The notes under the pieces are model-generated. The model saw only the letters and a program-made list of their open reading frames with translations, did no database searches and was not told the DNA's origin. A program made the position numbers and the translations under genes. From Clostridiales bacterium UBA1206 (GTDB lineage Bacteria > Bacillota > Clostridia > Oscillospirales > CAG-382): DNA of 64,000 nucleotides. Positions 3,216-41,055 of this stretch are shown piece after piece (the first letter of the stretch is position 1; each line of letters starts with the position of its first letter). Location of the stretch: the NCBI GenBank assembly GCA_002310055.1, contig DBXS01000033.1, forward strand, positions 40,822 through 104,821. The letters run 5' to 3'.

Positions 3216-5166
<1,951 letters not shown>

Positions 5167-5223
5167 TGCCGCAGAACGCATTAAAGCGGTGAATTTACGC
5201 ACCGATTTAAAAAAGGTTTTTAC

Positions 5224-5262
5224 AAAGCTATGCCAATTAAAAAAGGCATAGCTTTCTTTTTT
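5224..5262 (+). terminator. Rho-independent terminator after groEL
   Basis: AAAGCTATGCC-aattaaaaaa-GGCATAGCTTT 11-bp stem followed by CTTTTTT. Confidence 0.85.
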
Positions 5263-5290
5263 GCTTACCCGTTTTGCGTAAAGAAGGTGC

Positions 5291-5346
5291 TTGTCTGAAA
5301 ACTTCGACTGCCGTACGACCGTACGGCGACGCTCGTTTTCAGACAA
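5291..5346. other. Nested long hairpin in non-coding DNA
   Basis: TTGTCTGAAAAC (5291-5302) pairs with GTTTTCAGACAA (5335-5346). It encloses an inner 7-bp stem GCCGTAC-gacc-GTACGGC. No T-run follows. Confidence 0.6.
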
Positions 5347-5385
5347 AATTCCCTCGCTTTACTGCGTTCTGCCTCGTGACGCCGC

Positions 5386-5480
5386 AGCGTTCGGTTACGC
5401 TATCCGGAATGTGGGCGGAAAAGGCGGAAATGACGCCGGAGCGTTGGGTTACGCCCGCCGGAATAAAGGCGGGAAAACGT
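5386..5480. repeat. Degenerate tandem direct repeat, about 54-bp period
   Basis: AGCGTTCGGTTACGCTATCCGGAATGTGGGCGG at 5386 and AGCGTTGGGTTACGCCCGCCGGAATAAAGGCGG at 5440. About 27 of the first 33 nt are identical. Confidence 0.55.
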
Positions 5481-5565
5481 CTGCAAGGATGTCGGCTGCT
5501 CCCGTCTGTACTTTTGTGAATATAGCAGAAACGTCTATTTTTCAGAATCTCGCCGCTCCTTAAAT

Positions 5566-5634
5566 ATACTCCCGCGCCGCCGCCGGGCAGAGCGTAGCGA
5601 GGGACAGGCGTGGGCGGCGGTGGCGCGGGAGTAT
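5566..5634. other. Long GC-rich hairpin in non-coding DNA
   Basis: ATACTCCCGCGCCGCCGCC pairs with GGCGGCG(gtg)GCGCGGGAGTAT: 19 bp with a 3-nt bulge and a 28-nt loop. No T-run follows. Confidence 0.6.
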
Positions 5635-5712
5635 GAGAGGGAAGCTGCGGAATTTATGCTATACCCCCTCTTCCTCGCAGCGTTTGTGGGGGTATTCCAA
5701 GCGAACATTCAG

Positions 5713-5741
5713 TTGAAAAACGGCGGATTTTGTGTTATTAT
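5713..5741 (+). promoter_or_regulatory. Sigma-A type promoter for the sigma-fusion gene
   Basis: TTGAAA (5713-5718), 17-nt spacer, TATTAT (5736-5741). About 110-nt leader to ATG 5861. Confidence 0.55.
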
Positions 5742-5860
5742 CATATATAAGAACGGCAAAGAAGCAAAAATATTTACCGTGACCCAACCTTTTTGCGCTT
5801 TTTAGTATCTTATGGGTGAAAGGCGACAAAAGAACAAACAAGTCAAAGAAAGGAAAAAGG

Positions 5861-8437
5861 ATGAAAAACGTTTCCGCAATGAACGACGCAACGCTCGTTG
5901 AACTTACTCTTATAGGGAACGATTCGGCTTATGAAGAGCTTGTGAAACGGCATGAAAAAGCGGTCAAAGGCACCGCGTACAAAGTCACCGGAAATGCGTT
6001 TTCCGCCGAGGACGCTTCGCAGGACGCCTTTGTTTCGGCGTGGATGAATCTTTCTGCGCTGCGCGATCCTTCGCGGTTCAGACCGTGGGTATGTTCCATA
6101 GCAAAAAACTGCGCAAGGAGAGTTGTGGAAAACTATCACGCCGCCATCCCCGATATCAGTCTTTCTTTACTTGAAGACGCCGATCCCGAAAGTATCGATC
6201 GCGTCGCTTTTGAAAACGAGCAGAGCGCGTATTCCGATCTTCACGAAGCCGTCGAAGCGCTGGGCGGCAAGATCAGGGAGACCGTAAAGCTCCATTATTT
6301 CGAAGGTTTGTCTGTCGCCGAAATAGCCGCAAAACTGTCTCTTCCGGAAGGGACCGTTAAATGGCGGCTGAGCGAAGGGAGAAAACGACTTAGAAAGGGT
6401 TACGGTATTATGGAAAAAGAATACGACGAAAACGAGAAAATGGTGCGCAAAGTTATGCGCCAAATCGAACGTCTCAAACTGTGGCGGCTCAAAAACGATC
6501 GCTCCGGCTTTGAAGAGGAATTCAAAGAAGTCCTCGCAAGCGCGGAAGCGCTTGAGGATTCAAAAGAAAAGAGCCGCGCGCTTTCGGACGTGCTGATGAT
6601 GGGATATTGGTGGATCCCGGGAACCAGAAACGACGAAACGCTGGCAAGAATAAAGAAACACGCCGAAGAAAGCCGCAACGACGACGTTATGATGGAAGTA
6701 CTCGGTGGTGAAGCCGAGAATAAGAGCCCGCAAGAGATCATAGATCTTATAAAAGAAAAACAGATCCCCTACGTACAGGGATTGGGGATGAAGAAAACGC
6801 TGGGATATCTGCATTTTTGGCTGGGCGTCAAGCTGTTCGACGTTGGACGTTATGAAGAGGGTATCGAAAGCTATAAAGCGGTGCTATCCGTGCTTGGACC
6901 GACTGACGTTTATTACGCCAACGCTATCGCTGCAATACGTATAGAAGAAAAAGTGCGCGAAAAAGGGCTGAGCAGAAACGATGATTCTCTGGCGTTCAGC
7001 GCGTGCGGAGACGAATACCGCAGCATAGACGGAAAGCTCTGGTTCTGGCAGGAGCCGGGCTACAGCCGCGGCAGCCTGTGGTCTGCGAGCGAGCCGGGAG
7101 TATACTTTGCAAGTCTGTGCGATAGCCTTATTATCGAACCCGAAATGAAGGCGGGCGACGTCAAGACCGCGTCAGACGGCATAACAAAGCTCGTTTGCAA
7201 AAGCACAAACGCTGCCGTATCCACTCCTGCCGGAGTTTTTGAAAACTGCAGCGTCTTTGCCGTCAGCGAGAACGAAAAGTTTTTCGAAACGGCGTTTTGT
7301 CCGGGCGTGGGTATGGTATATCAAAAGATCACGAACACCATCGTGAACGAGCATTTCCTTAAGAAATATCATATAGAAGGCGGTTCGGGCCTGCTGCCGC
7401 TCGCCGCGGGCAACCGTTGGGAATACATCGCAAAAAATGCGTTCATAGCGGGCGAATTCGAAGATATATTGGAAATCACAGGTGCAGAGGACGGCAAGGC
7501 GGTCGCCGCTGCGTACGGATTCTCGCATCGCACCGGTTACGATGAGACTGCGTGGGCGGGCAATATGCTTAACGCGCGTCAGAATTACGCCGTGTGCGAA
7601 AACGGAAAAGAACGTCTTGTAGATATGAGGGAATGCTTTGCAAAGGCGTTGCCGCTCGCAAAGACCAAACGCGAAAAGACGCATACCCGTATAGCCGCCG
7701 GCGTTATGGAACGCATATTGAATACCGATCCCGAGTTCAATCCCGAATACGCCGAATGCGGACGCTGGAATTTCTTCCAAAGACATTTCGCCCGGCGCGA
7801 AGACGGCAGGACTGTGATCTGCGAAGATGAACGTATGTTTTCATTTGAATGGAAAAATATGGGCGGCAATATGGGCGAAAACGGCGTGGGGAAACGGCTG
7901 CTTTATAATATGCTGTACGGTATCGTTCAGGACGCTGCGGACTGTATGTGGTCGGATAAATGGACGCCCGGATACACGGAAAAACGTGATGTCGCGATTT
8001 ATAACAACGTCTGCAAGCTCGAGCTCACGGTGCTCGGCGAAGAGCGCGTGGAGACTCCCGCGGGGACTTTTGAAAACTGCCGGCACGTCGTTATGGAGCT
8101 GAGCAATTTACCCGCCGGATTGAGTTATCGCTCGGGACGTATGGAATGCTGGTACGCTCCGGGCGTGGGGATCGTAATGTTCAGCCGTCCTTTGAACAAC
8201 GGCGGTACCGATAACGTGAGCAACGTCTGGTATCTTACGGCGTACGAAGGCACGGGAGACGGATATTTCCCGATCAAAGACGGTCTCTTCCGCCGGTACG
8301 AACCAGAATACACCGAAGGCTGGAACGGCAGAGTGGAATATACTTATGTCGAAGACGAAAACGGCGTAGTCATATTCTTTGACCAGCTGGGAACGCAGGA
8401 CCGCGCCTCGTATGAAGCGGGGCTGAAAACTGAATAA
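5861..8437 (+). CDS. ECF-type sigma-70 family sigma factor fused to a large (about 670 aa) C-terminal domain of unknown function
   Basis: N-terminal 190 aa carries region 2 (DASQDAFVSAWMNL, FRPWVCSIAKNCARR) and region 4 (LHYFEGLSVAEIAAKLSLPEGTVKWRLSEGRKRLRKG). The remainder has a TPR-like stretch and two copies of TPAG[VT]FENC...PGVG[MI]V. No hydrophobic TM stretch is visible. ATG 5861 follows AAAGGAAAAAGG; the ORF opens at GTG 5816. Confidence 0.8.
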   Translation: MKNVSAMNDATLVELTLIGNDSAYEELVKRHEKAVKGTAYKVTGNAFSAEDASQDAFVSAWMNLSALRDPSRFRPWVCSIAKNCARRVVENYHAAIPDISLSLLEDADPESIDRVAFENEQSAYSDLHEAVEALGGKIRETVKLHYFEGLSVAEIAAKLSLPEGTVKWRLSEGRKRLRKGYGIMEKEYDENEKMVRKVMRQIERLKLWRLKNDRSGFEEEFKEVLASAEALEDSKEKSRALSDVLMMGYWWIPGTRNDETLARIKKHAEESRNDDVMMEVLGGEAENKSPQEIIDLIKEKQIPYVQGLGMKKTLGYLHFWLGVKLFDVGRYEEGIESYKAVLSVLGPTDVYYANAIAAIRIEEKVREKGLSRNDDSLAFSACGDEYRSIDGKLWFWQEPGYSRGSLWSASEPGVYFASLCDSLIIEPEMKAGDVKTASDGITKLVCKSTNAAVSTPAGVFENCSVFAVSENEKFFETAFCPGVGMVYQKITNTIVNEHFLKKYHIEGGSGLLPLAAGNRWEYIAKNAFIAGEFEDILEITGAEDGKAVAAAYGFSHRTGYDETAWAGNMLNARQNYAVCENGKERLVDMRECFAKALPLAKTKREKTHTRIAAGVMERILNTDPEFNPEYAECGRWNFFQRHFARREDGRTVICEDERMFSFEWKNMGGNMGENGVGKRLLYNMLYGIVQDAADCMWSDKWTPGYTEKRDVAIYNNVCKLELTVLGEERVETPAGTFENCRHVVMELSNLPAGLSYRSGRMECWYAPGVGIVMFSRPLNNGGTDNVSNVWYLTAYEGTGDGYFPIKDGLFRRYEPEYTEGWNGRVEYTYVEDENGVVIFFDQLGTQDRASYEAGLKTE

Positions 8438-15600: not shown

Positions 15601-16587
15601 TTATTTGTTTCCCACTTCGCTGCCGCCCCATTCGACCACGGTGAAGCCGTGACGTTCGGGCGCGGAAAACTCCTGCGGCGGGATATCGACCGGTTCGTCG
15701 AGCGGCGTAAACGCCATAAAGACTCTTATGCAGGTATCGGGTTCGGGCGTCACGCACAGCACGGCGTTTTCGGTGTAGGCGTTTGTCTGGAACGATATGA
15801 GGTTGTATTCGTTATCCTGCATCAACGGCAGCCAGTAGATAATGAACTCGTTCGCCTCGCGCGCGGAAAGCCCAAGCTTCGGCAGCGTTTCCGCAAGGAA
15901 CGCCGCGGTGTCTTTCCCCGCCACGCACGCTCCGCGTGTGAAATCGAATACGGCGCCGTATCCAACGCCCTCCCAGTAAAGGGCATAGTATTCGCTTCCG
16001 TCGGGGAACACTAGCGTGCCGTCGGGCTTGGCAACAAAGTTTTCCCAGCCGTTTTCGCCGTATTCGGGGTAGGTACAGGTCAGCTTTCCGTTAAGCATGA
16101 GTTTTACCGAACAGACCGTTTCTTCGGCGGGATACAGGTAGATAATGGGTTTGTCCATTACCGGCTCGCCTGCCTCGTAATTCGATCTTCTCGCGCTGAC
16201 GACTTCTTTTATGACGAATTTGCACGTTATTTGATATGCGTTTTCTCTGGTGCCGTAGTCAAAGACTCTTTCTTCGGCGATACAGTATCTGCCGTAAAAC
16301 TCTATGCGCGCGGTATCGAACTCATTGAACCCCGTAACGCCTTCGACGAACACGTCGTCGCCGACTGTGCCGTTTTCGTCCGAACTCCTAACGTAAAGGT
16401 ACGTCACGTACAGTGTGCCCGGATCCAATTCCACGCCTTCTCTCAGGCATATATAGTTTTCGGGCACCGGATTCGTCACGGGTTTCGACGGAACGTCGTT
16501 CCCGCACGAAACGAGCAGTAAAGAAAAAACGAGTGCTGTCATTAGTATCGCCACCGCAAAAGCGGCTGTCTTGCTGCGATTTGTCAT
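15601..16587 (-). CDS. Lipoprotein, unknown function
   Basis: Start at ATG 16587 (MTNRSKTAAFAVAILMTALVFSLLLVSCGN) with lipobox LVSC, 8 nt after GGAG. The longer ORF to 16737 would overlap the upstream gene end. Confidence 0.7.
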   Translation of the reverse strand: MTNRSKTAAFAVAILMTALVFSLLLVSCGNDVPSKPVTNPVPENYICLREGVELDPGTLYVTYLYVRSSDENGTVGDDVFVEGVTGFNEFDTARIEFYGRYCIAEERVFDYGTRENAYQITCKFVIKEVVSARRSNYEAGEPVMDKPIIYLYPAEETVCSVKLMLNGKLTCTYPEYGENGWENFVAKPDGTLVFPDGSEYYALYWEGVGYGAVFDFTRGACVAGKDTAAFLAETLPKLGLSAREANEFIIYWLPLMQDNEYNLISFQTNAYTENAVLCVTPEPDTCIRVFMAFTPLDEPVDIPPQEFSAPERHGFTVVEWGGSEVGNK

Positions 16588-16612
16588 AGCGGTATTCTCC
16601 TTTCGCTTTCTG

Positions 16613-16635
16613 TGGATTGGTTGCTTTTTTGTAAG
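16613..16635 (-). repeat. 23-nt core of the lipoprotein-leader element (third, partial copy)
   Basis: On the minus strand, CTTACAAAAAAGCAACCAATCCA is identical to the 3' end of the 105-nt element. It ends 25 nt upstream of ATG 16587. Confidence 0.85.
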
Positions 16636-16726
16636 GTGGATGAAATCTTCCGTCGCGGTGTGGTGTACTGAACGCCGCCCGAAGTGTTTCAGTATCAAAA
16701 AATACATAGAACTGAGCACTGCCTTA

Positions 16727-17152
16727 TCATTCGCCAAACCATATTCTTACAACTGCACCATTTCTTTTATCAATTGCAATAGTGCAATCGTAACCTATGA
16801 CGCCATTTTCATATGCATCACTATCCCAAAATGTTACTATCCATATGCCATCTTCTTCATCATAAAACACGCGCTGTGGGGTAAATTGGCTTGCAGTTTT
16901 GCTTTTCTCCATTCCTTCAAAAACAGACACGGCAATATTCAGCGCGACTGTTTGACTTGGAACAACATCTCCGTAATATGTTCCCGTGGGATCGTTCCAA
17001 TTCTTGTTGTCGTAAATACCGGTTTCATATTCTATCAGTTCATAAGACTCCATTTCAAAAATACTTTCGTCACTATCGTCGTTTCTGCTACATGAAATAT
17101 TTGAACATATCAAAATGATAATCATACCAAATAAAAGAATTGATTTTTTCAT
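16727..17152 (-). CDS. Lipoprotein resembling NTF2-fold immunity proteins (Imm-NTF2-like)
   Basis: 141 aa, lipobox NISC. The C-terminal pattern A..IA..VF...P..VFYDEEDGIWIVTFW...G..G.D..I.I.K.NG.V..IW.GE resembles the NTF2-fold immunity family as I recall it. Markedly AT-richer codon usage than its neighbours. Confidence 0.45.
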   Translation of the reverse strand: MKKSILLFGMIIILICSNISCSRNDDSDESIFEMESYELIEYETGIYDNKNWNDPTGTYYGDVVPSQTVALNIAVSVFEGMEKSKTASQFTPQRVFYDEEDGIWIVTFWDSDAYENGVIGYDCTIAIDKRNGAVVRIWFGE

Positions 17153-17174
17153 ATTTCATAACCTCCTCGTATTA

Positions 17175-17279
17175 TGGATTGGTTGCTTTTTTGTAAGAGG
17201 GTAATGCGGCAACCGTATGCATTACCGATAATGCATATGATACCACTTTTTACCCTCTTATACAATTCCGTACCAGTCC
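17175..17279 (-). repeat. 105-nt imperfect-palindrome leader element, copy A
   Basis: Reverse complement is 101/105 identical to 38227-38331. It ends 22 nt upstream of ATG 17152. Confidence 0.9.
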
Positions 17280-17337
17280 ATCTGTATGATAATACTGCCG
17301 AAAAGCCGAAAAGCGGACAAAAAACAACCGTATTTTT

Positions 17338-37700: not shown

Positions 37701-37967
37701 TCATTTTCTTATACCGAGGCGCTCGATGATGGAACGATAACGGGTGATATCGATATCGGTGAGATAAGCAAGGAATTTCTTTCTCTTGCCGACCATCTGA
37801 TGCAGGCCTCTGCGCGAATGATCGTCTTTGGGGTTGCGCTTGAGATGTTCGGTGAGTTCGCGGATCCTGTAGGTGAGGATAGCGATCTGGACCTCAGGCG
37901 AACCGGTGTCGCCTTCGTGAACAGCGTACTCTTTGATGATCTGCTGCTTGAGTTCGGGTGCGAGCAT
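37701..37967 (-). CDS. rpsO: 30S ribosomal protein S15
   Basis: 88 aa from ATG 37967 ([32 protein letters not shown]...HSRRGL), 7 nt after GGAGGAA. The longer ORF to 38039 is rejected. Confidence 0.96.
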
Positions 37968-38101: not shown

Positions 38102-38140
38102 TACCTTTTTTATAAAAAATGCGGTTTTTTTGATTTTACC

Positions 38141-38164
38141 GCAGGGAAAACCCTGCTGCTTTTT
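38141..38164 (+). terminator. Orphan terminator-like hairpin between divergent promoters
   Basis: GCAGGG-aaaa-CCCTGC followed by TGCTTTTT on the plus strand. There is no plus-strand gene upstream of it. Confidence 0.35.
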
Positions 38165-38175
38165 AGCGTTTGGTA

Positions 38176-38204
38176 TTGACATAGCATATAAAGACTGTTA
38201 TAGT
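38176..38204 (+). promoter_or_regulatory. Sigma-A type promoter driving the long leader of the 38406 lipoprotein gene
   Basis: TTGACA (38176-38181), 17-nt spacer, TATAGT (38199-38204). Predicted 5' UTR of about 195 nt. Confidence 0.7.
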
Positions 38205-38226
38205 ATAAATGAAATCTAGGGAAAGT

Positions 38227-38331
38227 GGACTGGTATGGAATTGTATAAGAGCGTAAAACGTGGTATCATATGCATTATCGGTAATGCATACGGTTGCCGC
38301 ATTACCTTCTTACAAAAAAGCAACCAATCCA
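38227..38331 (+). repeat. 105-nt imperfect-palindrome leader element, copy B
   Basis: 101/105 identical to the reverse complement of 17175-17279. Lies within the predicted 5' UTR, 74 nt before ATG 38406. Confidence 0.9.
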
Positions 38332-38405
38332 GACAATGAAATTAACCATTTGTCGCAGATCTATCAACTTATTGCAGATAATTGATATATTAGGGAGGAA
38401 AGAAA

Positions 38406-39467
38406 ATGAAACGCATTATTTCTGTATTACTCATTATAATCCTTGTGCTTATGATTACCGTCGGATGCGGCAGAGTAAACGAATCAGATGTCAATTCCGA
38501 TGACGCTGCGTCCGGTCAAACAAAAAGTGAAGACGGTAATAACGGATCCGTTGCGCAAACGGAACCATCTGCCGGCGAGGATAGCAGTACGCCTATCGAA
38601 AGCTCGGAAGAAGACAGCGACACGGACGTCTCCACGGATACGGCGCCACAGCACGTAACTGCGGTGCTGCAATATCTTTATTTCGAAGACTATTTGGAAA
38701 CCGTGACCGACCTTGTAGAAGGCAGGTTCGTTTCTTCGACGCAAGAGGGCGCTCTTATATACTGCATATTCGAGGCGGTGAATGATTTAAGGGGGAACGG
38801 CCTGAACGGAACGGTTACGGTCCGGTATAAGCCGGCTGACTGTACGTTTGCAGATGCGAACGGCGAGTTTTCGACCTACGATGCAAAATTCATCGCAGGC
38901 ACTACGTATCTGCTGCCCCTTATCAGGGCGACATCCGTTTATATCGATGGTGATTCGTATTATTTTTCGGCAGACAGCCTTATTATCCCTGTGCAGGATT
39001 ACGAACAGTCGGCCGAGTTATACGGAACTCCGCTGCGCGGCCATATAAAAACGCAGGAGGCGATGGAAGCTTTTGATAACGGCGAATTGGCGGGATATAT
39101 CCTTGAAACGATACGTGATAATCCGCGCGTTTTCGGAACTCCTTATACGGAATCGACCGATATAGCCGAGATCGTCGGTTTTTCCGATCACGTGCTGAAG
39201 GTCACCGTGGGCGTAAAGATACAAGACGGCGACAGTGGCGACAGGACGACGTACAAATGCCGGATCGACGAGGTGCTGAAAGGCGATATCGGACCGGACT
39301 TGGAGCCCTGGGTAGTATTCCCCGCGGGCAAAGCCGAACAGGGCGGCACATATATCGTCGCCGTTTGCGAAGTCGACTCGCCTACGTTTTTGGTGATGTC
39401 GAGCAAAAACAGCGTATTCGACTGCTCGGAATATGATACGTTAAAAGAGATAATAAACAACGAATGA
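38406..39467 (+). CDS. Lipoprotein, unknown function
   Basis: 353 aa. Signal peptide with lipobox TVGC, then an acidic S/E/D-rich linker. GGGAGGAAAG RBS. Confidence 0.75.
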   Translation: MKRIISVLLIIILVLMITVGCGRVNESDVNSDDAASGQTKSEDGNNGSVAQTEPSAGEDSSTPIESSEEDSDTDVSTDTAPQHVTAVLQYLYFEDYLETVTDLVEGRFVSSTQEGALIYCIFEAVNDLRGNGLNGTVTVRYKPADCTFADANGEFSTYDAKFIAGTTYLLPLIRATSVYIDGDSYYFSADSLIIPVQDYEQSAELYGTPLRGHIKTQEAMEAFDNGELAGYILETIRDNPRVFGTPYTESTDIAEIVGFSDHVLKVTVGVKIQDGDSGDRTTYKCRIDEVLKGDIGPDLEPWVVFPAGKAEQGGTYIVAVCEVDSPTFLVMSSKNSVFDCSEYDTLKEIINNE

Positions 39468-39488
39468 CAAATAGCGCATATCAGATCC

Positions 39489-39513
39489 GCGGCGGAGCAA
39501 AACGCTCCGCCGC
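39489..39513 (+). terminator. Stem-loop after the lipoprotein gene (weak T-run)
   Basis: GCGGCGGAGC-aaaac-GCTCCGCCGC 10-bp stem followed by AACTATTATT. Confidence 0.45.
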
Positions 39514-39645
39514 AACTATTATTCGCCCAAGCGGCGCTTGCGCTTTTTATTTACATTTTTGTCATTGAAATATTTTTTAACTGTGGTATTATATTAGCAA
39601 GGATTGCAATATCACGTTTCCGCATATTTTTGGAGAACTGTTCAA

Positions 39646-41055
39646 ATGATAAAGAACGCGTTGAAATTCATAATAGCCGCCGCGATAATGTGCGGCGTGG
39701 CGTTCGGCGCCGTTTTTCTGGCGTCTTCGCGCTCGCTGCCGTTTTTGCCCAAAGAGGCGCCCGAATACAGCACCGTGGAAAATTCCGAAGAGACTTCGCC
39801 CGAAATTTCCGACGAGCCCTCTTACCCCGAAGAAAGCTCGGCGGAGGAAAGCTCCGGGACCGAAGTATCCGTCGACGAAGCCGCCGCGTTTATAGGCGGA
39901 GCCGAAACTTTCTCCCCCGGAAGCTTTGCGCCTCTCGACCGCCGCTATTTGGCGAAAGACGAAAAAGTCGTATATATAAACGCTCCTCTGCCCGCGGAAG
40001 AGTCCGCCGTCACGGCGGTGCGGATGGGGTTCGTCTTCCTGGAAGACGGGCGCATATTCGACAGCGCTTTCAACGACATAACCGAGCTCGCCGCGGGGTA
40101 CGCGTTCATCGGCGCGCGCGACAAAGCGGGACATCCGGTGTTCAAAAAAGGCGATTCGTATTATTATTACAACGGCGAAAACGGCTTTGCGCCTTCGAAC
40201 TACAACGTCTATTCCGACGCGACGGGATTCGAGTTCGACGTCCCCGTGTATCTGTGCGAGCAGCTTATGCCCATAAAGCGGTATTATGTAAAAAAGAAGA
40301 AATATTATAACTTCTACGGCGACGACGGCGACAGCTACGCTTACGGCTGCAAAGAGGTGTTCGCGTTCTATCCGTTCATAGAAAACGGCGTGGAGCGCGG
40401 CATCGCCTGCACCATCAAACGCGCGCACAGCGAAGACCGGCTCGTGTTCTATTCCACACGTTTCCGCCACGCCGGCGATTCAATAGACAACACGCTTTCG
40501 GATATCTACTATCCGCCCGAATCCCGCGGCATAGAATCCATAGGCTACTTCTATTTCTGCGACGGATATATCCGCGTCCGCGTAAAGAACGGCAAAAACT
40601 GGGAAGAACGGCTTATGGATACCGGCTGCAACCTGGCGCGCACGCTGAACGGCTACGTCATCGCGGGCTATTCCGACGGCTGCATACTTTACGAACGCAA
40701 CGGCAAATACGGCTTTACCACCAATTCGCTCAACTGGATCACCACGCCCGACCTCATCTCGGCGCACCCGTTCACCGAAGGGCTCGCGGTCGTGCAGACC
40801 GAGACCGGTTTCGGTATGATCGACACGACCGGCGCTTACGTGCTGCCTCCGGTGTTCGAAAAAGTCACGCCCTGCTCGGGCGGCGTGTTCGCCGCGTATT
40901 CTTCCGGCACCGGCTGGAACCTCTTCGCCAAGATCGACATAAATTCGCAGTACGTCCCGCCCGAAGAGATCGAGACCGAATCGACGGAAGAAAGCGATTT
41001 TGAATCCGTTGAAGAGAGTTCGGATCCCGAAGAAAGTTTTGAAGAAGAGCAGTGA
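39646..41055 (+). CDS. Membrane-anchored WG-repeat (KWG-like) protein
   Basis: Start at ATG 39646 (MIKNALKFIIAAAIMCGVAFGAVFLA). Acidic linkers at both ends. C-terminal repeats of the type GKYGFTT...PDLISAHPFTEGLAVV / TGFGMIDTTGAYVLPPVFEKV. Confidence 0.65.
   Translation: MIKNALKFIIAAAIMCGVAFGAVFLASSRSLPFLPKEAPEYSTVENSEETSPEISDEPSYPEESSAEESSGTEVSVDEAAAFIGGAETFSPGSFAPLDRRYLAKDEKVVYINAPLPAEESAVTAVRMGFVFLEDGRIFDSAFNDITELAAGYAFIGARDKAGHPVFKKGDSYYYYNGENGFAPSNYNVYSDATGFEFDVPVYLCEQLMPIKRYYVKKKKYYNFYGDDGDSYAYGCKEVFAFYPFIENGVERGIACTIKRAHSEDRLVFYSTRFRHAGDSIDNTLSDIYYPPESRGIESIGYFYFCDGYIRVRVKNGKNWEERLMDTGCNLARTLNGYVIAGYSDGCILYERNGKYGFTTNSLNWITTPDLISAHPFTEGLAVVQTETGFGMIDTTGAYVLPPVFEKVTPCSGGVFAAYSSGTGWNLFAKIDINSQYVPPEEIETESTEESDFESVEESSDPEESFEEEQ

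Follow-up and report, generated by a model that had tools for sequence, protein, structure and literature searches.

The near-identical palindrome that precedes two unrelated lipoprotein genes in the window (that is, the entire stretch of 64,000 nucleotides that was analysed) is almost certainly a 107-bp MITE, in which the left end (IRL, 52 bp) and the right end (IRR, 55 bp) of an IS3-family IS of ~1.45 kb are joined and the transposase has been lost. This MITE consists of exactly two terminal inverted repeats, with nothing between them. The element is an ordinary kind of bacterial repeat, and here it preserves the traces of a gene that was inserted and of another that was deleted.

The repeat pair and its parent element

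The two copies, namely 38227-38331 on the plus strand and the reverse complement of 17175-17279, differ at 4 of 105 positions (101/105 identical), lie upstream of unrelated lipoprotein genes and have the same orientation relative to the downstream gene, all as described in the earlier note. As also described there, the products of these genes (141 aa, 16727-17152, minus strand; 353 aa, 38406-39467) show no mutual similarity; neither lipoprotein has itself a match in Pfam. With the flanking T included, a repeat finder recovers a single 106-nt pair at 96% identity with sharp edges, and similarity beyond these 106 nt is absent, the flanks of the two copies being unrelated. The 45-nt core is present at only two sites in the window, against a chance expectation of 0. 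A third piece that had escaped the earlier note is a recurrence of the last 23 nt of the element at 16613-16635 (minus strand), which brings the content of the window to two full copies and one fragment. Including the flanking T and A, the full element spans 107 bp, TGGACTGG...CCAATCCA. In copy B (38226-38332, plus strand), IRL (38226-38277) is joined to IRR (38278-38332), and these halves match the separated ends of the IS; in copy A (17174-17280, minus strand), which forms the left end of a 668-bp insertion, IRL occupies 17229-17280 and IRR occupies 17174-17228. No transposase was found in the window by tblastn with the two transposase reading frames, orfA and orfB, and the MITEs of the window would need a full-length IS elsewhere in the genome for their movement. 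There is no match to the 105-mer in plasmid and phage collections (blastn), scans of viral contigs with three element patterns yielded nothing related, and the transposase query on viral contigs gave just one distant match, at a contig end.

Scanning species-representative genomes with the apical-hairpin pattern produced 23 loci, only one of which (L010) is a true copy, the rest being chance hairpins; this pattern is too generic as a query for genome scans. The true copy comes from the goat-omasum Clostridia MAG RGIG2681, where one full copy precedes a third, unrelated lipoprotein gene by 32 nt and a half-copy of the 3' side lies another 2.3 kb on; L010 has these two within 2.4 kb. When metagenomes were scanned with the 20-mer of highest conservation, nine rumen-type contigs were retrieved. 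In rumen-type contigs, the 5' half (H5, positions 1-51) and the 3' half (H3, positions 52-105) of the palindrome are mostly separate, and the space between them is filled by orfA/orfB IS3 transposase sequence or by nested deletion remnants. Among the nested deletion derivatives, L027, L029, L036 and L026 have 612, 549, ~627 and 98 nt, respectively, between the halves. In L029, H5 is followed by the orfA N-terminus (VKYNPEMKEQTVKYVLEGNKSATKV...), the orfB C-terminus and H3; in L027, by a truncated rve ORF (159 aa), the conserved right-end region of ~90 nt and H3; and in L026, the 98 nt between H5 and H3 join the start of orfA to the right end across an ACAAGTC microhomology. Alignment of IRL with the reverse complement of IRR gives 35-36 matches in ~52 columns, and this match is unchanged whether the halves touch or sit 96-627 nt apart. 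Elsewhere on L026 (1845-2166), and on L025 (~735 downward), IRL is followed by unrelated conserved sequence in place of orfA, and in L026 the sequence past IRL runs on into repeated AGCTAAATT motifs spaced by short GC hairpins.

The closest full-length transposase match (P0008, 81% identity) is encoded on contig L035, where a complete element of ~1.45 kb comprises H5 (498-548), orfA (573-902), orfB (950-1765) and an H3-like end from ~1895, with this IRR-like end cut off by the end of the contig. In Pfam, the orfA product corresponds to HTH_Tnp_1 and the orfB product to HTH_21, rve, rve_2 and rve_3. There is an A7 slip site at position 863 of L035, from which the -1 frame is open into orfB, and joining of orfA to orfB by -1 frameshifting is predicted from this site. 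Counted from the D of HSDRG, the E of VESFF lies at a distance of 36 residues, a spacing of the DD(35)E type. The length of the L035 element and that of a Fibrobacter relative (1371 bp) both fall in the range of the IS3 family (about 1.2-1.55 kb), and the ends, TGGACTGG...CCAATCCA, conform to the TG...CA pattern of this family. The parent IS3-family element is unnamed, and it is common in rumen Clostridia. Several independent assemblies (L045-L048, L050 and L076) start inside the MITE, at H3 positions 1, 19 or 25, as is typical of repeats that short-read assembly collapses. Of the seven two-ended copies inspected, none is flanked by a target-site duplication of its own; the sole duplication flanks the 668-bp composite unit that contains copy A.

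An insertion at copy A and a deletion at copy B

The history of copy A was reconstructed from sister-strain loci found via contigs with an identical RuvX protein. In two of these (L066 and L072), ...ATCATACAGAAAGCGAAAGGAG... comes directly after the membrane-protein gene and is itself followed by a 328-aa gene, with the empty site reading ATCATACAGAAAGCG. The window has, at this position, ...ATCATACAGA immediately followed by TGGACTGG, the remainder of the unit up to CCAATCCA, and then CAGAAAGCG.... Homology between the window and the empty site stops at 16613 and 17281, with an overlap of 4-5 nt. Given the empty site and the presence of CAGA on both sides in the comparison with it (left copy 17281-17284, right copy 16609-16612, both on the minus strand), we conclude that a transposase-less, MIC-like unit of 668 bp (16613-17280, minus strand) was inserted. 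This duplication of 4 bp, the only one seen where elements of the IS3 family are expected to make duplications of 3-5 bp, became visible only once the empty site had been recovered, direct inspection of the flanks having shown none. Such a target-site duplication, found here around the unit that contains copy A, is precisely what the earlier note had set as refuting a regulatory RNA.

The 668-bp unit consists, in this order, of the MITE, the 141-aa lipoprotein gene, ~90 nt of an RHS-like remnant and an IRR tip. The passenger gene (16727-17152, minus strand) has homologs (P0145 and P0148) that match the NTF2-fold immunity protein family PF15631 (Imm-NTF2-2, polymorphic-toxin immunity). The terminal IRR fragment of 23 nt (CTTACAAAAAAGCAACCAATCCA; 16613-16635, minus strand), which is the right end of the insertion, ends 25 nt upstream of the resident lipoprotein gene (15601-16587, minus strand), the one that directly follows the membrane-protein gene in the strains with the empty site. 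A mechanical ORF of 378 aa (15601-16737, minus strand) reads across the IRR fragment; the true start is ATG 16587, yielding a 328-aa protein that begins with MTNRSKTAAF..., has the lipobox LLVSC and is called with the same start in other assemblies. In our reading, the cassette made of IRL-IRR, the immunity-like lipoprotein gene and the IRR tip moved as a single unit into the spacer that separates the membrane-protein gene from the lipoprotein gene, producing the 4-bp duplication. Either a tip as short as 23 nt is enough for transposition or it was truncated later. Other contigs (L078, L079 and L080) contain further rearrangements with breaks at or near the IS tips and also a longer RHS-like stretch after the passenger gene, so the 23-nt tip may be a deletion remnant of a full IRR; L079 and L080, in particular, are suggestive of a later deletion. 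A different IS3-family element (orfA 172 aa, orfB 297 aa), without H5/H3 ends, is present at L077:111-1519; it sits where homology to the window breaks off, at the 3' end of the gene for the 430-aa membrane protein that lies immediately before copy A.

Copy B resides in a slot (38120-39536) between rpsO (37701-37967) and a WG_beta_rep gene (39604-41055) that is hypervariable among strains, as found by comparing contigs with an identical S15 protein (loci L057-L065). The slot is empty in L064, contains a 287-aa gene in five contigs, and accommodates a pair consisting of a metalloprotease gene and the 353-aa lipoprotein gene in L060; of L057 and L058, one has a 276-aa gene and the other an HTH gene together with 195-aa and 112-aa genes. 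In none of these nine other loci is there an IS or a MITE in the slot. The homology between the window and L060 extends up to 38225 and is back at 38327, and the MITE exactly replaces 2.65 kb that comprise the leader and nearly the whole gene for an 837-aa metalloprotease. The gap of 73 nt between the MITE and the start codon is made up of the last 17 codons of the metalloprotease gene with its stop codon (DNEINHLSQIYQLIADN plus stop; 38333-38386, plus strand), a remnant of the deleted 837-aa RicinB/HExxH metalloprotease gene, and the normal 19-nt spacer; the 353-aa lipoprotein gene that follows (38406-39467, plus strand) was orphaned by the deletion. In L051, which has the same arrangement as L060, a 98%-identical lipoprotein is encoded 20 nt after an 815-aa gene. 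Normally, the 353-aa lipoprotein gene is located 20 nt past a large secreted RicinB/CBM96/HExxH metalloprotease gene (L060, reverse complement 3721-6234; L051:1-2448), and the lipoprotein may be a partner or an inhibitor of the metalloprotease.

The promoter TTGACA-17-TATAGT that the earlier note had placed at 38176-38204 (plus strand) was recovered by a promoter scan, with a TG extension, and is a resident of the locus that, in L060, precedes the metalloprotease-lipoprotein gene pair. As for the 5' UTR of ~195 nt with copy B that was proposed along with it, the transcript is plausible, but this UTR came about by deletion and is an accidental product of rearrangement rather than a conserved leader. 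Copy B is what was left after insertion of an IS or a MITE and loss of the 2.65 kb, which could have occurred either by adjacent deletion or by recombination between two copies. The loss removed the secreted metalloprotease gene and linked its promoter, via the MITE, to the next lipoprotein gene. Copy B lacks a target duplication, as is expected where one flank stems from a deletion. A similar event is apparent from the comparison of L010 with L030, which agree at 98% identity up to and including the final base of IRR, then contain different genes and become homologous again ~18 nt before the end of the replaced gene. The rpsO-pnp region of the window is 97.4% identical to that of the MAG RGIG2681 and 100% identical to a contig of run SRR5324818.

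Rival readings of the palindrome

Could the element nevertheless be a cis-regulatory RNA (a riboswitch, an attenuator or a protein- or sRNA-binding leader) of lipoprotein mRNAs, with the rod and its alternative helices functioning as a switch, as the earlier note preferred? In favour of this reading, both copies are located upstream of a gene in the sense orientation, copy B lies behind a strong promoter, and the fold is significantly stable. The rod-like fold is indeed real (z = -4.0 for copy B and -6.9 for copy A), but the opposite strand is as stable (z = -5.7 and -6.5, respectively), and a fold shared by the antisense strand is the mark of a DNA palindrome rather than of a strand-specific RNA. 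No riboswitch or leader class had been recognised in the earlier note, and this still holds, with 0 Rfam matches at the gathering score across the whole window and only two chance matches, outside or partly overlapping the element, in a local Rfam scan at E<=10. The helices, for which covariation had been suggested as a check, show compensatory change in 0 of 38 predicted pairs, with scores not above those of shuffles and with the base changes seen in paired positions being one-sided or disruptive; as the six distinct adjacent copies are of low divergence, this test is weak on its own. Furthermore, the two arms are equally conserved and equally complementary when they are 96-627 nt apart or, in the full IS, ~1.3 kb apart, strains exist that carry the same genes without the element, and the supposed specificity for exported lipoproteins does not hold, the genes downstream of the element elsewhere coding also for membrane and cytoplasmic proteins. 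The regulatory-RNA reading is thus largely refuted, and we consider it very improbable. It is the fallback of the earlier note, a miniature palindromic mobile element, that proved right, the halves being IS3-family ends. The "helices" would then be blocks of sequence common to the two IS ends, presumably transposase-binding sites, and the palindrome would resemble an RNA rod because both ends bind the same transposase and so are alike in inverted order.

Two further readings concern the DNA itself. IS1397 and ISKpn1 insert into REP palindromic units, and there, likewise, an IS3-family element lies between palindrome halves. By analogy, the halves could be those of a host REP-like palindrome, the apical loop of which is the target of an IS3-family element (as for IS1397 in E. 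coli), and such an origin would be compatible with the facts that every IS copy is flanked by both halves and that the break falls at the palindrome centre. However, the Fibrobacter relative of the IS (1371 bp, 71% aa identity; NCBI name 'IS3 family transposase ISMdi5') has ends homologous to H5/IRL and H3/IRR, with the same three conserved blocks, and in independent Fibrobacter insertions the flanks, which diverge outside these ends in different contexts, part exactly at TGGACTATGGCGTGATTTAATAAGAGGGTAAATCATG... on the left and ...AATGAATATGGCTTGCGAAAAGCCCTCTATTAAAAAATCTACAAGTCCA on the right. In the relative L039 (72% identical), the equivalent positions are occupied by inverted repeats of its own (51 nt, TGGAGTG.../...CATTCCA), which have diverged but still match. 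Moreover, the ends obey the TG...CA rule of IS3, the inner junctions show no duplication of the loop, and CAGA is duplicated outside the outer ends. Judged by these sequence comparisons, the halves are the IS's own ends, not a host target, and, in distinction from IS1397 and ISKpn1, the boundaries of the IS are the outer ends of the halves; the probability of a REP-like target is, in our estimation, very small. The element might also be a site-specific recombination site (attC- or dif-like) at which single-gene cassettes are exchanged, given that L026 and L036 contain arrays of the gene, element, gene type, that two syntenic loci, L010 and L030, have different genes following the element, and that the rpsO slot is hypervariable. 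Against this stand the absence of RYYYAAC/GTTRRRY cores on both strands of the element, the lack of any linked integrase or recombinase (none adjoins either copy), the variability of the rpsO slot without the element in all other strains, and the location of the breakpoints at the outer IS tips, which is the transposase- or homology-driven type, rather than at a central crossover. A recombination site appears extremely improbable.

Neighbouring genes and known systems

A co-oriented start codon follows within 11-75 nt of the outer IRR tip in at least ten contexts; this bias is strong, and it is unusual for random MITE insertion. Frequent neighbours of the copies are toxin-like genes and RHS/YD fragments, the latter being found beside the IS or MITE at L010:2940-3010, L035:90-515, L039:721-1569 and L079:~1050-1180. 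The notion that the element is part of an RHS gene was considered and dropped: the RHS-like fragments represent neighbourhoods into which the IS inserts. That the downstream genes code for lipoproteins would follow from the IS inhabiting variable accessory islands of the toxin/immunity type rather than from a shared regulon. The simplest reading of the bias is that the IS resides in accessory islands with short spacers, where co-oriented copies alone survive because transcription passes through them.

An additional contribution might come from a putative transposase promoter read from the sequence of IRL (38241-38269, plus strand; TTGTAT, 17 nt, TGgTATCAT, with an extended -10), the -10 element of which is TATAAT in L010, L030 and L031. 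This putative promoter is located ~35 nt before orfA, the site expected for the transposase promoter of an IS3 element. This promoter (TGnTATCAT or TGnTATAAT) probably reads out through IRR and, in the MITE, would do so into the next gene; such read-out would account for the co-orientation of the genes adjoining IRR. The promoter scan also detects a weak outward promoter-like site, ATGATA-18-TACAAT, at 38240-38269 and 17237-17266, on the strand opposite to the downstream gene. A hybrid outward promoter with TTACAA in IRR as the -35 element was rejected, as the flanks contain no matching -10. A bolder and rather unlikely proposal, which we offer only tentatively, is that IRL-IRR modules are portable promoter/5'-UTR units that, together with IS ends, would pick up orphaned lipoprotein genes of the immunity type, reshuffle them at the variable loci of rumen Clostridia and drive their expression there. 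If true, it would explain why IRR nearly always adjoins a co-oriented gene start.

The immediate consequence of these findings is the removal of a false riboswitch candidate, and there is a more general trap here: a MITE made of two IS ends mimics a structured leader RNA when a single genome window is read alone. In addition, two recent events come to light in an uncultured lineage of rumen Clostridia (~97% identical to the MAG RGIG2681), one in which IS3-type ends brought in an immunity-like lipoprotein gene and another in which a secreted metalloprotease gene was lost while the gene for its partner lipoprotein was retained. Furthermore, an unnamed IS3-family element, with its MITE and cassette derivatives, fragments metagenome assemblies.

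How does the element compare with those already described? RUP in pneumococcus and the Correia elements in Neisseria are familiar examples of MITEs, and MIC231 derives from IS231. The window element resembles known MITEs in its size of ~100 bp, its terminal inverted repeats, the lack of a transposase, the intergenic location, the hairpin fold, the presence or absence between strains and the propensity to break assemblies. Bacterial IS-derived MITEs are non-autonomous elements (PMC3281130); likewise, the present copies are 107 bp long without a transposase, have ends homologous to those of an autonomous IS and are polymorphic, the copy A site being empty in L066 and L072 and copy B being absent from the nine rpsO loci, and their mobilisation in trans by the parent transposase is predicted. 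They differ from the cited MITEs in having an IS3-family parent, in consisting exactly of IRL and IRR with nothing between, in adjoining co-oriented gene starts and in showing no target duplication around individual copies. Mobile insertion cassettes (MICs), such as MIC231 of Bacillus cereus, are a known non-autonomous class (PMC3281130), and the 668-bp unit is comparable to these, with IS ends around a passenger gene, no transposase and a target duplication; in contrast to MICs, however, its left end is a whole MITE (IRL and IRR) rather than a single repeat and its right end keeps just 23 nt of IRR, and its parent, unlike that of MIC231, belongs to the IS3 family. With that family the parent shares its two reading frames (orfA and orfB) with a -1 frameshift motif, an rve domain of the DD(35)E type and ends of the TG...CA form, and a 4-bp duplication was seen once, around the 668-bp unit. 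Its inverted repeats, at ~50 bp, are among the longest in the range of the family, and the copies in the window are ends only.
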